Below are positions 1,169 through 6,381 of a stretch of 64,000 nucleotides of DNA, piece by piece. The translations under genes were made by a program, and so were the position numbers. The notes beneath the pieces were generated by a model. That model saw nothing but the letters and a program-made list of their open reading frames with translations, made no database searches and was not told where the DNA came from. The DNA lies in NCBI RefSeq assembly GCF_013167455.1, contig NZ_CP038328.1. One strand, 5' to 3'. Position 1 is the stretch's first letter. Every line of letters starts with the position of its first letter. This stretch comes from Escherichia coli O157:H7. GTDB lineage: Bacteria; Pseudomonadota; Gammaproteobacteria; Enterobacterales; Enterobacteriaceae.

Positions 1169-2505
1169 ATGAACACTTCACCGGTGCGAATGGATGATTT
1201 ACCGCTTAACCGTTTTCACTGTCGAATTGCTGCGCTCACTTTCGGCGCACACCTGACCGACGGTTATGTTCTCGGCGTCATTGGTTACGCCATTATTCAA
1301 CTTACGCCCGCCATGCAACTGACGCCGTTTATGGCGGGAATGATCGGCGGCTCGGCGCACCTTGGTTTGTTTCTTGGCAGCCTGGTTCTTGGGTGGATCT
1401 CCGACCATATTGGTCGGCAAAAAATCTTCACCTTCAGCTTTTTGCTGATTACGCTCGCTTCGTTCTTGCAATTTTTTGCCACCACGCCAGAGCATCTTAT
1501 TGGACTGCGCATTTTGATCGGCATTGGTCTGGGAGGCGATTACTCAGTAGGTCACACCTTGCTGGCTGAATTTTCCCCGCGCCGCCATCGCGGTGTTTTG
1601 CTGGGCGCATTCAGCGTGGTGTGGACCGTAGGCTATGTGTTGGCAAGTATTGCCGGACATCACTTTATTTCCGAAAACCCGGAGGCCTGGCGCTGGCTGC
1701 TGGCATCGGCAGCTCTGCCCGCGTTGTTGATTACGTTATTACGCTGGGGAACGCCAGAATCGCCACGCTGGCTACTGCGCCAGGGGCGTTTTGCAGAAGC
1801 TCACGCTATCGTGCATCGCTATTTTGGTCCCCATGTTTTACTGGGCGATGAAGTGGCAACGGCGACCCATAAACACATCAAAACCTTGTTCTCTTCGCGC
1901 TACTGGCGGCGCACGGCGTTTAACAGCGTCTTCTTTGTCTGCCTCGTAATCCCATGGTTTGTGATTTATACCTGGCTGCCAACTATCGCCCAGACTATTG
2001 GACTGGAAGATGCGCTGACTGCCAGCCTGATGCTTAATGCGTTGTTAATTGTGGGCGCGCTGCTGGGATTAGTTCTGACGCACCTGCTGGCACATCGCAA
2101 ATTTTTGCTGGGAAGTTTTTTGCTGCTGGCGGCAACGCTGGTAGTGATGGCCTGTTTGCCTTCCGGCAGTTCATTAACGCTGCTGCTTTTGTTCTCTTCA
2201 GCACCACCATTTCGGCAGTCAGTAATCTGGTGGGCATTTTGCCTGCGGAAAGTTTTCCTACTGACATTCGCTCGCTGGGCGTCGGTTTTGCCACCGCCAT
2301 GAGTCGGTTGGGGGCGGCGGTAAGTACTGGCCTGCTGCCGTGGGTGCTGGCGCAGTGGGGAATGCAAGTCACCTTATTGCTCCTGGCGGCAGTGTTGTTG
2401 GCTGGTTTTGTTGTAACCTGGCTATGGGCACCAGAAACCAAAGCACTCCCGCTGGTGGCGGCGGGAAATGTAGGAGGTGCGAATGAACATTCTGTTAGCG
2501 TTTAA
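1169..2505 (+). pseudogene. ygcS: MFS transporter (YgcS-like) with apparent -1 frameshift near 2186-2200
   Basis: ATG at 1169 opens a membrane-protein frame that must switch to the frame of ORF 2230..2505 (FSTTISAVSNLVGILPAESFPTDIR...); 1337 nt total is one short of a 446-codon gene. Confidence 0.6.
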
Positions 2506-3262
2506 AGCCGAACCGGATGCCGGAATGCTGGCGGAAAAAGAGTGGCAGGCGGCGGCTCATGGTAATAGCGGACCGGATATTTCGCTACTGCGAAGTTTAC
2601 TCGGTGCTGATGAACAGGCTGCCGCCGCGCTGCTGTTGGCGCAGAGAAAAAACGGTACGCCGATGTCTTTAACCGCGTTGAGCATGGGGGATGAACGGGC
2701 GTTGCACTGGCTGCGCTATCTCATGGCTCTTGGGTTTGAGGAAGCTGTATTGCTGGAGACGGCGGCAGATCTGCGCTTTGCGTCGGAATTTGTCGCTCGC
2801 CATATTGCCGAATGGCAGCGTCAGAATCCGCTGGATCTGATAATTACCGGCTGCCAAAGCAGCGAAGGGCAGAATGGGCAAACGCCATTTTTGCTGGCGG
2901 AAATGCTGGGCTGGCCTTGCTTCACCCAGGTGGAGCGTTTCACTCTCGACGCGCCGTTTATCACCCTCGAACAGCGTACTGAACATGGGCTGCGCTGTTG
3001 TCGGATTCGCTTGCCTGCGGTGATTGCCGTGCGTCAGTGCGGTGAAGTGGCCTTGCCAGTACCGGGAATGCGCCAGCGAATGGCTGCGGGGAAAGCGGAA
3101 ATTATCCGTAAAACTGTTGCTGCCGAATTGCCAGCGATGCAGTGTCTGCAACTGGCAAGAGCAGAGCAACGACGCGGAGCGACGCTGATTGATGGGCAAA
3201 CGGTAGCAGAAAAAGCGCAAAAGCTATGGCAGGACTATTTACGCCAAAGGATGCAGCCATGA
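2483..3262 (+). CDS. ygcR: electron-transfer flavoprotein beta-subunit-like (FixA-like)
   Basis: ORF 2477..3262; AGGAGG at 2472-2477 then ATG 2483 (MNILLAF...). Confidence 0.75.
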   Translation: MNILLAFKAEPDAGMLAEKEWQAAAHGNSGPDISLLRSLLGADEQAAAALLLAQRKNGTPMSLTALSMGDERALHWLRYLMALGFEEAVLLETAADLRFASEFVARHIAEWQRQNPLDLIITGCQSSEGQNGQTPFLLAEMLGWPCFTQVERFTLDAPFITLEQRTEHGLRCCRIRLPAVIAVRQCGEVALPVPGMRQRMAAGKAEIIRKTVAAELPAMQCLQLARAEQRRGATLIDGQTVAEKAQKLWQDYLRQRMQP

Positions 3263-4119
3263 ATATCGCAATTGTGACAATAAATCAGGAGAATGCCGCA
3301 TTAGCGGGCTGGCTGGCGGCGCAGGATTTCAGCGGTTGTACCCTGGCGCACTGGCAAATAGAACCACAGCCCGTAGTGGTGGAACAGGTGCTGGATGCGC
3401 TGGTGGAACAGTGGCAGCGAACGCCTGCGAACGTTGTTCTCTTTCCGCCGGGAACGTTTGGCGATGAACTGTCGACTCGGCTGGCCTGGCGTTTACATGG
3501 TGCAAGCATCTGCCAGGTGACTTCGTTAGAGATTCCAATCGTAAGCGTGCGCAAATCCCACTGGGGAAATGCGCTAACGGCGACGCTGCAAACAGAAAAA
3601 CGCCCGCTATGTCTTTCCCTGGCGCGCCAGGCGGGAGCAGATAAAAATGCCACGTTGCCCTCTGGTATGCAGCAACTGAACATAGTCCCAGGTGCGCTTC
3701 CGGACTGGCTGGTTAGCATAGAGAACCTGAAAAATGTTACCCGCGACCCATTAGCTGAGGCCAGACGGGTGTTGGTGGTGGGGCAGGGCGGAGAGGCAGA
3801 TAACCAGGAAATCGCTATGCTGGCATAAAAGCTGGGAGCCGAAGTGGGCTACAGTCGGGCGCGAGTGATGAACGGTGGCGTTGATGCTGAAAAAGTGATT
3901 GGTATTTCCGGACATCTGCTGGCACCTGAGGTGTGTATTGTTGTTGGCGCTTCTGGCGCAGCAGCGTTAATGGCGGGCGTACGCAATAGCAAGTTTGTGG
4001 TGGCGATTAATCATGACGCCAGCGCAGCGGTATTTTCACAGGCAGATGTTGGCGTGGTTGATGACTGGAAAGTGATGCTGGAGGCACTGGTGACAAACAT
4101 TGACGCAGAATGCCAATAA
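3259..4119 (+). pseudogene. ygcQ: electron-transfer flavoprotein alpha-subunit-like (FixB-like) interrupted by in-frame TAA at 3826-3828
   Basis: ORFs 3226..3828 and 3844..4119 are in the same frame, separated by a single TAA; ATG 3259 overlaps ygcR stop; 3259..4119 would encode 286 aa. Confidence 0.65.
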
Positions 4120-4123
4120 CGTG

Positions 4124-4842: not shown

Positions 4843-4858
4843 AAATTATCCTTATTAT

Positions 4859-5119
4859 TTATCCAAATCGGTAGGTGATGCCGAATCCGGAAGGCGGATA
4901 GCGCCACTGTTGTAGTGTGGATTCGTCGCACAGCAAACGGCAGGTGCCACACTCCAGGCAGCCGTGATAATCAACGCGTAAGTCACCTTCCGGTGTGAGC
5001 GAAAAAAGACCTACCGGACAGGCGTTAATCAACCGTTGTACCATCTGACGCTCAACGGAGTCAGCCGGAACAATGTGCGGCGCATCAGCAGCGCGCCAGA
5101 GATTACGGGCTACAGACAT
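4859..5119 (-). CDS. ygcO: ferredoxin-like protein (FixX-like)
   Basis: ORF 4859..5155, likely start at internal Met (MSVARNLW...) giving 86 aa; Cys cluster CLECGTC. Confidence 0.7.
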   Translation of the reverse strand: MSVARNLWRAADAPHIVPADSVERQMVQRLINACPVGLFSLTPEGDLRVDYHGCLECGTCRLLCDESTLQQWRYPPSGFGITYRFG

Positions 5120-6381
5120 CGAACACTCCTGATAACATCGCCCGCCAGATTCCACAAGCCATGACGACGTAAATGACGCCAGAGTAACTGGCGCAGCGGT
5201 GGAACAGGTTTATCACCCTGATCCCATAAATCGCGGGAAATATCCTGCATTAACGCAGGCCACGTACGGTACCATCCCGGGCGTTGCAAAAGCACCGGAA
5301 CATGCTGATAACGCTGTAGAACATCCCACAGCAGGCTGCGCTCTACGTTGTGATGATAAAGCGGAAACAGATTTTGCGGCTCGCGGTGCTGGCAGGCGCT
5401 TATCAGTGTTTGTGCCGCCGCCTGCGCGCCAGTTAGCGCCGTATCCATGCCGCGCACAGAAATTCCGGTATTGACGCAACTGCGCAACGCATCGCCCACC
5501 AGCAGCCAGCCGTTACCGGCGTATTGTACCGGCATACTGTGCAAGCCACCTTCTGGCACCAGATGCGCACCATACTCCAGTGATTCCGTGTTTTTGATAA
5601 GCGGGCGCACTGCCGGATGCGTTTTAAAGCGAGCAAGCAGCTCGCTTGCCGGAACACGACTTTGCGTAAGGGAAGAGAGTGGGCAAACAATCCCTAACGA
5701 GAGCGTTTGTTGATTAGTATAAAGAAATGCGCCGCCGGGTAAGTCATCACAGATTCCGCCGCTGAACAGCAACGCTGCGCCTTCGTTATTCTCCAGATGA
5801 AAACGTTCTTCAATAGCGGATGTTTCCAGCGACAGCACTTCTTTGATCCCCAACGCCATCGCTTCGCCAGCAGGACGAGTCACTAACCCGTGACGTTCAG
5901 CCAGGACGCTGTTGGCACCTTCTGCCAGCACCACATAACGGGCGCGGAGAATATCGTCACCACAAATGACACCACACACCCTGCCGTTTTCTTCATACAG
6001 TGCATCCACCGTCGCACCAGGGATGCATTCGACACCTTCTTTTTCGGCTTCGGCAACCAGCCACGGATCGAACCGTGCACGTAATACACTCCAGGATTCA
6101 CCGCCGGGCTGTAAGCTGGAAAACGTCGTTGCGCAATCCGGCGTTAACAGGGAAAGGCTTTCGTGAGTGATGCGTCGTTCAAGAGGCGCGGTCAGATGAA
6201 ATTGAGGGAGGAGTTCCGCGAGTGCATGGGTATATAACCGCCCGCCGGAAAGATTTTTGCTGCCGGGGATTTCAGCGCGTTCCAGTAACAAAACGGATAA
6301 ACCCGCTCGCGCGCAGCGTAACGCGCAAGCGGTGCCTGCAATACCGGCACCAATAATAATAATGTCGCAGTCGTCTTCCAT
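5110..6381 (-). CDS. ygcN: FAD-dependent oxidoreductase (FixC-like)
   Basis: ORF 5110..6411; start at MEDDCDIIIIGAGIAG (dinucleotide-binding motif) checked at 6379-6381. Confidence 0.75.
   Translation of the reverse strand: MEDDCDIIIIGAGIAGTACALRCARAGLSVLLLERAEIPGSKNLSGGRLYTHALAELLPQFHLTAPLERRITHESLSLLTPDCATTFSSLQPGGESWSVLRARFDPWLVAEAEKEGVECIPGATVDALYEENGRVCGVICGDDILRARYVVLAEGANSVLAERHGLVTRPAGEAMALGIKEVLSLETSAIEERFHLENNEGAALLFSGGICDDLPGGAFLYTNQQTLSLGIVCPLSSLTQSRVPASELLARFKTHPAVRPLIKNTESLEYGAHLVPEGGLHSMPVQYAGNGWLLVGDALRSCVNTGISVRGMDTALTGAQAAAQTLISACQHREPQNLFPLYHHNVERSLLWDVLQRYQHVPVLLQRPGWYRTWPALMQDISRDLWDQGDKPVPPLRQLLWRHLRRHGLWNLAGDVIRSVRCL

Follow-up and report, generated by a model that had tools for sequence, protein, structure and literature searches.

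We studied the ygc gene cluster in a 64,000-nt stretch of the Escherichia coli O157:H7 chromosome (contig NZ_CP038328.1 of assembly GCF_013167455.1; hereafter, the window). The functional unit consists of ten genes, ygcN to ygcE, arranged as ygcN-ygcO-ygcP, ygcQ-ygcR-ygcS-ygcU-ygcW, and yqcE-ygcE, and it reaches past the window edge: the remaining part of ygcU lies upstream, together with ygcW and the divergent pair yqcE-ygcE, and all of them are annotated as intact in O157:H7. We consider it likely that these genes form a CRP-activated catabolic cluster that is undergoing stepwise, most likely neutral decay. Two of them, ygcS and ygcQ, are derived pseudogenes fixed in this lineage. The nonsense mutation in ygcQ (E190*) arose first, in the common ancestor of O55:H7 and O157:H7; later, O157:H7 lost the transporter gene ygcS and O55:H7 lost the transporter gene yqcE.

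Base-by-base alignment of each cluster gene to K-12 MG1655 revealed only two differences that break an open reading frame (ORF), one in ygcS and one in ygcQ. Both frames were broken when compared with K-12 and with 10 other genomes, and the five remaining cluster genes of the window had the K-12 length and no stops. This confirmed the original prediction, made from the window sequence, that two genes of the cluster carry lesions. PGAP (in EDL933) and the curated Sakai record both flag ygcS as frameshifted and ygcQ as containing an internal stop, and the two pseudogenes were already known from RefSeq annotation; ygcU is annotated as intact in both strains. An independent ORF check on 16 genomes matched the PGAP flags.

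In ygcS, a 1-bp deletion reduced a run of five T residues (T5) to four (T4) at positions 2187-2190 of the plus strand (gene position about 1015-1019 in K-12). The resulting -1 frameshift lies at about codon 340 of 445, and a stop is reached in the shifted frame at 2300-2302. Judging by the K-12 sequence, the tenth hydrophobic segment begins where the frame breaks, and transmembrane segments (TM) 10-12 would be lost as a result. PGAP proposes an alternative ygcS start at position 1097 (469-aa product in other strains), but the K-12 start at 1169 appears more plausible, because position 1097 sits in the loop of the first of two hairpins in the ygcU-ygcS gap, which are described below.

In ygcQ, a G to T substitution at 3826 turned the codon GAA (E190) into TAA (3826-3828, plus strand). 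The stop falls inside PF00766, the FAD-binding domain of the electron transfer flavoprotein (ETF) alpha subunit, which spans residues 165-242 of K-12 YgcQ in Pfam. In an alignment to human ETF alpha (PDB 1efv), it just precedes the conserved VG-SRA-V FAD-binding segment, so the product is left without its FAD domain; the complete C-terminal PF00766 domain that characterizes an ETF alpha subunit is missing from YgcQ of the window. The stop would be expected to disable the ETF branch of the cluster.

The prevalence of both lesions was assessed by searching for an 81-mer centred on each in 5,426 complete E. coli genomes. Exact matches to the T4 allele of ygcS were found in 297 genomes and to the TAA allele of ygcQ in 308; roughly 4,750 other genomes possessing the region differed at the lesion. 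Every non-O55/O157 genome with the region had T5 and GAA, which identifies both lesions as derived, and the genes were intact in other Escherichia species too. The prediction had named sequencing errors at both sites as the finding that would overturn it. A change in homopolymer length is indeed a typical error type, and the O157:H7 assemblies SS17 and SS52 differ at the ygcS run. However, the ygcQ lesion is a substitution, and identical alleles recur in the 297 and 308 independently produced genomes from many laboratories, including those of Sakai, EDL933, TW14359, EC4115, and Xuzhou21 (which are among the many O157:H7 chromosomes with 100% identity to positions 1-12000 of the window). The chance that the lesions are sequencing or assembly errors is therefore next to nil, and we rejected this explanation. 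The suggested loss of function in this lineage was supported, as the lesions are derived and fixed and remove TM10-12 of the transporter and the FAD domain of ETF alpha. T5 was kept in O55:H7 and in SS17 and SS52. The cluster genes in the locus extracted from SS52 were identical to those of EDL933 except for the T run (ygcE was not covered), and its T5 represents either a reversion or a homopolymer error.

We also find it highly improbable that the lesions are silent or reversible, whether through slippage on the T run, re-initiation within ygcQ to give a split ETF alpha, or replacement by paralogous ETFs. The ygcS lesion does lie in a homopolymer that two O157:H7 assemblies read as T5, and ygcQ has an in-frame GTG at 3844 with GGAG 5 nt upstream. 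Yet with only four or five T residues the run is rather short for slippage to be efficient, and re-initiation at the GTG would yield at most a 91-aa C-terminal fragment. Alignment to 1efv places the split inside the Rossmann-like FAD domain, past its first strand and helix, which the fragment would be without. Moreover, lineage-private changes in ygcQ numbered seven nonsynonymous to five synonymous (7N:5S), an accumulation of missense changes expected of a dead gene.

Two queries served to reconstruct the order of the lesions: an O157 allele that had been "repaired", and the ygcS region with T5 put in. An intact ygcS in an O157-type background was found in O55:H7 (CB9615, RM12579, DEC5A/B/D/E, TB182A, USDA5905, 2013C-4465, and FDAARGOS_946) and in O157:H7 SS17 and SS52. 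All three O55:H7-type genomes inspected combined the ygcQ stop and an intact ygcS with a stop of their own in yqcE (W377*, TGG to TGA). The ygcQ stop thus preceded the loss of ygcS in O157:H7 and that of yqcE in O55:H7. The yqcE W377* of O55:H7 lies four codons from L381Q, a change private to O157. As a separate observation, ygcU carries a 6-nt in-frame insertion in DEC5A and FDAARGOS_946.

Metabolic functions decayed stepwise from O55:H7 to O157:H7, the losses of beta-glucuronidase and of sorbitol fermentation being examples. The ygc lesions are similar in that they are clone-fixed point lesions in catabolic genes that can be ordered on this path. They differ in that ygcQ and ygcS are on record only as RefSeq pseudogenes: literature searches by gene name and locus tag returned list mentions, papers on CRP sites, and a study of YgcS overexpression but no paper discussing their decay.

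The strength of selection was estimated as the mean pairwise ratio of nonsynonymous to synonymous substitution rates (dN/dS) across ten genomes. The ratio was 0.022 for ygcU, 0.018 for ygcP, and 0.021 for ygcW, resembling cysHIJ; 0.055 for ygcS, 0.048 for ygcE, and 0.071 for yqcE; and 0.11 for ygcN, 0.16 for ygcO, 0.15 for ygcQ, and 0.22 for ygcR. As all ten values are well under 1, the cluster is normally maintained, and it is under purifying selection in intact lineages. The last four genes, hereafter the ETF/Fix genes, evolve 5-10 times faster than ygcU, ygcW, and ygcP, both within E. coli and between genera. Identity between the Citrobacter and K-12 proteins was 90-97% for the core of the cluster (defined below), with YgcU, YgcW, and YgcP at 93-97%, and 56-78% for YgcR, YgcQ, YgcO, and YgcN.

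On the branch leading to O55/O157, the ETF/Fix genes had 15N:12S in addition to the stop, compared to 4N:22S in ygcP, ygcU, ygcW, cysHIJ, and queD (p = 0.004). All ten ygc genes together had 22N:36S, compared to a species polymorphism of 248N:914S (p = 0.005). This missense excess in the ETF/Fix genes and the sequential lesions support the earlier description of the cluster as decaying. Four O157-private changes affected residues invariant across 38-47 other genera: YqcE L381Q (L381 conserved in 46/46 genera), YgcE G230S (45/45), YgcO A36V (38/38), and YgcS L64H. In the O111/O26 lineage, in which ygcW carries a nonsense mutation (Q32*), 4 of the 11 private missense changes were at cross-genus invariant residues; post hoc pooling of the O157 and O111/O26 lineages gave p = 0.0026 for the invariant sites. 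Such changes suggest hidden damage in O157 genes whose reading frames appear intact.

In E. coli we count at least three losses of the ygc cluster that arose independently, two of them in enterohaemorrhagic E. coli (EHEC) lineages. For the comparison of cluster integrity that the prediction had called for, genomes were picked from an evenly spaced ranking, with K-12 added, and ten non-O55/O157 clusters were inspected. In nine of them all ten genes were intact. The tenth, from O111:H11 8D, carries Q32* (CAG to TAG) in ygcW, the first gene of its operon; within the O26/O111/O103 EHEC group, 118 genomes had the exact allele, including O26:H11 11368, O26 RM10386 and RM8426, and O103 RM8385. The third loss, seen in EC6622, is a deletion of ~10.9 kb that removed ygcN to yqcE and most of ygcE (positions 5550-6070 of its extracted locus, L007). 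At the junction, a 456-nt 3' remnant of ygcE is fused to the first 66 nt of ygcN (6316-6381 in the window), and 286 genomes contained this junction over its full length; among them were urinary, bone, and chicken isolates. At least 712 of the 5,426 genomes (13%) carry one of the three independent inactivations. The cluster was absent from about 6% of E. coli genomes.

Such recurrence could be explained by adaptive inactivation, in which the pathway would be detrimental in the EHEC niche and selected against in both EHEC-1 (O55/O157) and EHEC-2 (O26/O111/O103). Consistent with this, nonsense mutations have been fixed in both groups (ygcQ E190*, carried by 308 genomes, and ygcW Q32*, carried by 118), and subsequent lesions struck the same cluster. 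We nevertheless regard selection against the pathway as unlikely: each inactivation occurred once, within a clonal lineage, and is compatible with drift, the 10.9-kb deletion is not EHEC-specific, and secondary hits are expected under neutrality after the first gene has died. The later hits to the cluster probably reflect relaxed selection.

The cluster had been described as encoding FixC-like, FixX-like, and ETF alpha- and beta-like proteins, a GlpP-like antiterminator, a major facilitator superfamily (MFS) transporter, and an FAD oxidase, and Pfam and NCBIfam bore this description out. YgcU combines PF01565 (FAD_binding_4, E = 5e-36) with PF02913 (FAD-oxidase_C, E = 4e-19), as expected of a VAO/GlcD-type oxidase. 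It is not a GlcD equivalog (NCBIfam score 142.6 against a cut-off of 567.9), and its nearest solved relatives were alkyl-DHAP synthase (the best), glycolate oxidase, LctD, D-LDH, and D2HGDH. YgcR contains the ETF domain PF01012 (E = 1.7e-16) in an ORF that is intact in the window and qualifies as an ETF beta subunit; K-12 YgcQ is an ETF alpha subunit whose matches include LctC. YgcN matched PF21162 (29.8 bits against a cut-off of 27.7) and YgcO gave a FixX-like match (E = 2e-23), the two together resembling an ETF:quinone oxidoreductase. YgcP matched PF04309 over its full length (E = 1.4e-62) as well as PDB 3kts (E = 1e-27), in line with a GlpP-type antiterminator. Among the other proteins, Pfam and NCBIfam identified YgcW as a KduD-like short-chain dehydrogenase/reductase (SDR), YqcE as an MFS protein, and YgcE as an FGGY kinase. 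YgcS is an MFS protein of the sugar-porter/aromatic-acid type that scored best in the aromatic-acid/H+ symporter subfamily (TIGR00895), above sugar porters, and it may be no sugar transporter. In a study of nicotinamide mononucleotide (NMN) production, YgcS was chosen as a homologue of NiaP (niacin/nicotinamide), and its overexpression raised NMN titres (PMC8601175).

None of the four ETF/Fix proteins reached the cut-off of its FixABCX orthologue set (YgcN, 359 vs. 610 for FixC; YgcO, 82 vs. 166; YgcQ, 62 vs. 549; YgcR, 32 vs. 219). Nor are the four genes in one operon: ygcR-ygcQ and ygcN-ygcO belong to two convergent transcription units. Because no protein reaches its NCBIfam equivalog cut-off, the ygc proteins are to be seen as paralogues of FixABCX and GlcD.

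YgcU loci were also extracted from a further 67 genomes, and every locus was scored for all ten proteins. The complete ten-gene order was found in Escherichia, Citrobacter, Klebsiella, Raoultella, Pluralibacter, Yokenella, Cedecea, and Buttiauxella. YgcW and YgcE, often with YgcP, accompanied YgcU everywhere, including in Bacillales, Enterococcus, and Clostridia. By comparison, ygcR, ygcQ, ygcO, and ygcN were absent from several clusters in Erwinia, Pantoea, Izhakiella, Ewingella, and Serratia (S. proteamaculans and S. quinivorans), and the ETF/Fix genes were also absent from the clusters of Bacillales and Fodinisporobacter. In Desulfobacterales, Syntrophomonadaceae, Vibrio, and Clostridium, the ygcU orthologue was immediately followed by ETF beta and alpha genes alone, and those Enterobacterales that retained FixCX always retained the ETF as well. 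These gene neighbourhoods mark ygcW-ygcU-ygcE, in many cases with ygcP, as the core of the cluster and the fast-evolving ETF/Fix genes as its accessory part. Since the adjacency of oxidase and ETF genes recurs across taxa, YgcU may pass its electrons to the ETF, and the ETF/Fix genes would then be an accessory electron outlet for this oxidase. The substrate clues provided by additional neighbours were inconsistent across taxa (an aldo-keto reductase, LysR, DUF1254/DUF1214, PlsC-type acyltransferases, BCCT and OpuA-type transporters, and a GH2 enzyme).

The division into core and accessory genes offers another explanation for the lesions, namely that only the accessory branch has been shed (ygcS and ygcQ, and hence ygcR, ygcN, and ygcO) and that the core, consisting of yqcE-ygcE, ygcW-ygcU, and ygcP, is functional in O157:H7, which would amount to streamlining and not to a lost pathway. 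Clusters without the ETF/Fix genes occur naturally in Erwinia, Pantoea, Izhakiella, Ewingella, Serratia, Bacillales, and Fodinisporobacter; in O157:H7 no core ORF is broken, and the CRP site and the two leader elements (see below) are likewise intact; and the core genes had 1N:12S on the lineage branch. We consider such selective shedding possible but doubtful, as the O157-private changes YqcE L381Q and YgcE G230S fall at cross-genus invariant residues and the sister lineage O55:H7 lost the core transporter yqcE outright. In addition, the invariable presence of the ETF in Enterobacterales with FixCX suggests that YgcU depends on the ETF in this clade.

According to the preferred reading, that of a whole cluster decaying stepwise under relaxed selection, the pathway would operate as follows. 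A compound would be imported by the MFS transporters YqcE and/or YgcS, phosphorylated by the FGGY kinase YgcE, and then oxidized by YgcW, an SDR, and YgcU, an FAD-linked oxidase. Electrons from YgcU would flow to a dedicated ETF formed by YgcR and YgcQ and, via the FixC- and FixX-like YgcN and YgcO, to quinone. YgcP would sense the phosphorylated intermediate and permit read-through of the terminators in the ygcW and yqcE leaders. By disabling the ETF branch, ygcQ E190* in the O55:H7/O157:H7 ancestor would have relaxed selection on the rest of the cluster, after which each daughter lineage lost a transporter. The uptake and oxidation pathway that the original prediction had envisaged fits the protein domains, the control by CRP, and the gene neighbourhoods seen across genera.

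Several observations weigh against decay of the entire cluster. The genes ygcW, ygcU, ygcE, ygcP, and yqcE are still ORFs in O157:H7, and the core could function without an ETF, by analogy to the natural ETF-less clusters of Serratia, Pantoea, and Erwinia. The paralogous E. coli ETFs FixAB and YdiQR might act as substitutes. When the ETF/Fix genes were compared to their own polymorphism, their missense excess on the branch was marginal (p = 0.06), and for O157 alone the excess of changes at invariant sites was not significant (4/22 vs. 10/130 in other lineages, p = 0.12). SS17 and SS52, the only O157:H7 assemblies with T5, have an intact ygcS. Finally, literature searches found no experiment tying the cluster to a substrate or a phenotype.

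Regulation of the cluster was examined in the region between the divergent genes ygcW and yqcE. A perfect CRP palindrome, TGTGATTACGATCACA, is located there (positions 14414-14399 of the extracted K-12 locus, L003) and was invariant in 13 E. coli genomes. Binding of CRP to this site was detected by ChIP in enterotoxigenic E. coli H10407 (PMC4287617), the site had been predicted earlier (PMC1794230), and yqcE-ygcE is listed as Crp-activated (PMC8085971).

The ygcW leader contains an intrinsic terminator with a 19-bp stem and a U-tract, 32 nt 5' of the ygcW ATG (-34.2 kcal/mol, z = -7.1), and the element recurs in the yqcE leader (-22.3 kcal/mol, z = -4.2). The two copies lie outside the window, about 3.3 kb upstream of position 1. 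The element was present in both leaders of about 50 Enterobacterales loci, and also in Vibrio and Firmicutes. Its consensus reads RTTACY-AGAGAY..GAGAAARGTAAY, followed by a variable inner stem and then by RYTRCYTTTCTC-U6-9. The terminator was recovered by RNAalifold, and 6 of its 15 pairs showed compensatory changes. Its 5' arm has bases in common with a helix of 7 bp that lies upstream (AGUUACC/GGUAACU). In the alignment, 84.7% of the cells of this antiterminator helix were paired, with G-C replaced by A-U in 18 sequences and U-A by C-G in 16, and its covariation exceeded that of 500/500 shuffles and of all slid controls.

A covariance model built from the element detected exactly two copies per Escherichia cluster. 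In the 64-kb window, neither a pattern search allowing up to 3 mismatches nor the covariance model found a copy, and none precedes ygcN or ygcS. Among loci outside the training set, the element was detected in 8/8 with a ygcP homologue versus 0/7 without one. The eight positive loci (L070, L077, L083, L084, L085, and those of Vibrio, Clostridium, and Fodinisporobacter) scored 26-63 bits, and the element was always in an operon leader. No Rfam family matched either the ygcW or the yqcE leader. The CRP site, both leader elements, and ygcP are all unchanged in O157:H7.

A leader terminator, a mutually exclusive antiterminator structure, and the co-occurrence of protein and RNA are together what is expected of a GlpP-type system. 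In Bacillus subtilis, GlpP targets consist of a promoter, a GlpP site, and an inherent terminator in the 5' untranslated region (UTR) (PMC9604022, PMC10573289). The ygc system likewise pairs a full-length PF04309 protein with 5' UTR terminators that follow a conserved site, as in the glpD, glpFK, and glpTQ leaders; the difference is that YgcP accompanies a module of SDR, kinase, and FAD oxidase, not glpFK/glpD. By analogy, YgcP with a phosphorylated intermediate bound to it would stabilize the antiterminator of the ygc leaders. A more far-reaching proposal can be assembled from these elements, in which ygc is a widespread catabolic module of Gammaproteobacteria and Firmicutes, its leader RNA, of a kind not described before, responds to YgcP, and the EHEC inactivations were selected as a niche-adaptive loss for a gut- or diet-derived compound. 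Taken as a whole, this combination is decidedly unlikely.

A feature distinct from the ygcW/yqcE leader element was identified in the ygcU-ygcS gap, where a terminator scan found two terminator-like hairpins in tandem (Table 1); the fold of positions 1076-1168 has an energy of -39.7 kcal/mol. A GC-rich hairpin with a T-rich tail was found in this gap in nearly all genera, with compensatory changes in the stem, and was conserved within E. coli. The hairpins separate the core genes ygcW-ygcU from the accessory genes ygcS-ygcR-ygcQ and may attenuate transcription into the latter.

We compared the cluster to known systems that employ the same protein families. The E. coli fixABCX (carnitine-linked) and ydiQRST genes encode the same four families as the ygc ETF/Fix genes (ETF beta, ETF alpha, a FixC-like protein with an ETF-QO domain, and a FixX-like protein), and in ygc, too, these genes sit beside those of a substrate dehydrogenase and a transporter. 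In contrast to fixABCX and ydiQRST, the ygc proteins are paralogues encoded by genes divided over two convergent operons, their partner is a VAO/GlcD-type oxidase and not a dehydrogenase of the acyl-CoA/crotonobetainyl-CoA type, and the ETF alpha subunit is truncated in the window. Another parallel is the lactate dehydrogenase-ETF complex LctBCD of Acetobacterium woodii (PDB 7qh2), along with ETF-dependent D-2-hydroxyacid dehydrogenases: here, too, a GlcD-like FAD enzyme has an ETF of its own, specified by neighbouring genes (YgcU vs. LctD, E = 4.5e-22; YgcQ vs. LctC, E = 1e-21). In distant ygcU loci, the gene order oxidase-ETF beta-ETF alpha recurs. However, the closest solved relative of YgcU is alkyl-DHAP synthase, not lactate dehydrogenase, and the enterobacterial ygc cluster adds FixCX-like genes, implying delivery of electrons to quinone rather than bifurcation. 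Overall, the cluster would act as an ETF chain of the FixABCX/YdiQRST type joined to a GlcD/LctD-like oxidase and controlled by GlpP-type antitermination.

The decay of ygcQ and ygcS is ordinary lineage-specific gene decay, and the finding of two pseudogenes is itself of little weight, as both are already flagged in RefSeq. What the analysis adds is the ordering of the lesions on the path from O55:H7 to O157:H7, the recurrent loss of the cluster, including in EHEC-2, and the split into core and accessory genes. For assigning functions to the ygc genes, K-12 is a suitable background and O157 or O26 is not, and the core/accessory split can guide the choice of genes. The YgcP-linked leader RNA is the most promising lead to the inducer and hence to the substrate and the function of the genes.

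Table 1. Features of the ygc cluster and its surroundings (window coordinates unless a locus is named)
Feature	Position	Strand	Remarks
ygcU' (FAD-linked oxidase, VAO/GlcD-like)	1-1075	+	3' 358 codons, 5' part cut off by window start; intact (ORF 2..1075)
Tandem terminator-like hairpins, ygcU-ygcS gap	1082-1113, 1117-1138	+	T-rich tail to 1148; terminator scan
ygcS pseudogene (MFS transporter)	1169-2505	+	Annotated as frameshifted/pseudogene; alignment to K-12
ygcR (ETF beta-like)	2483-3262	+	ORF intact; 23-nt overlap with ygcS end; own GGAGG Shine-Dalgarno
ygcQ pseudogene (ETF alpha-like)	3259-4119	+	Annotated as internal stop/pseudogene; TAA at codon 190
REP-like element	4167-4240		Convergent ygcQ/ygcP gap; coordinates transferred from K-12
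ygcP (GlpP-family antiterminator)	4267-4842	-	Intact
ygcO (FixX-like ferredoxin)	4859-5119	-	ORF intact; O157-private A36V
ygcN (FixC-like FAD oxidoreductase, ETF-QO ubiquinone-binding domain)	5110-6381	-	ORF intact; 5 lineage-private missense changes
queD, cysJIH			Next genes after ygcN in window
Leader RNA element (~70 nt), K-12 locus L003	14371-14300, 14498-14566	-, +	
Leader RNA element (~70 nt), EDL933 locus L004	13332-13261, 13459-13527	-, +	

The REP-like element in the convergent gap between ygcQ and ygcP corresponds, at its K-12 equivalent, to a weak match to naRNA4 (E = 0.005, under the gathering score). In strain 7/2, IS1397, which targets REP-like elements, is inserted in this gap, and the insertion sequence (IS) elements seen in the cluster region were intergenic.

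Further observations were made elsewhere in the window. A toxin gene of the hok/gef family is located at 11723-11875, and after it comes a complete operon of a type I-E CRISPR-Cas system, running from cas3 to cas2e, at about 12067-20625; IS insertions or cas3 frameshifts were seen in this region in several other E. coli genomes (loci L009, L010, and L013). The window comes from an O157:H7 genome other than the EDL933 assembly CP008957, from which it differs at a small number of SNPs and in a single indel region around position 61,900. The rpoS gene (31082-32074) is intact in the window and encodes 330 aa, whereas in CP008957 it has an internal stop.

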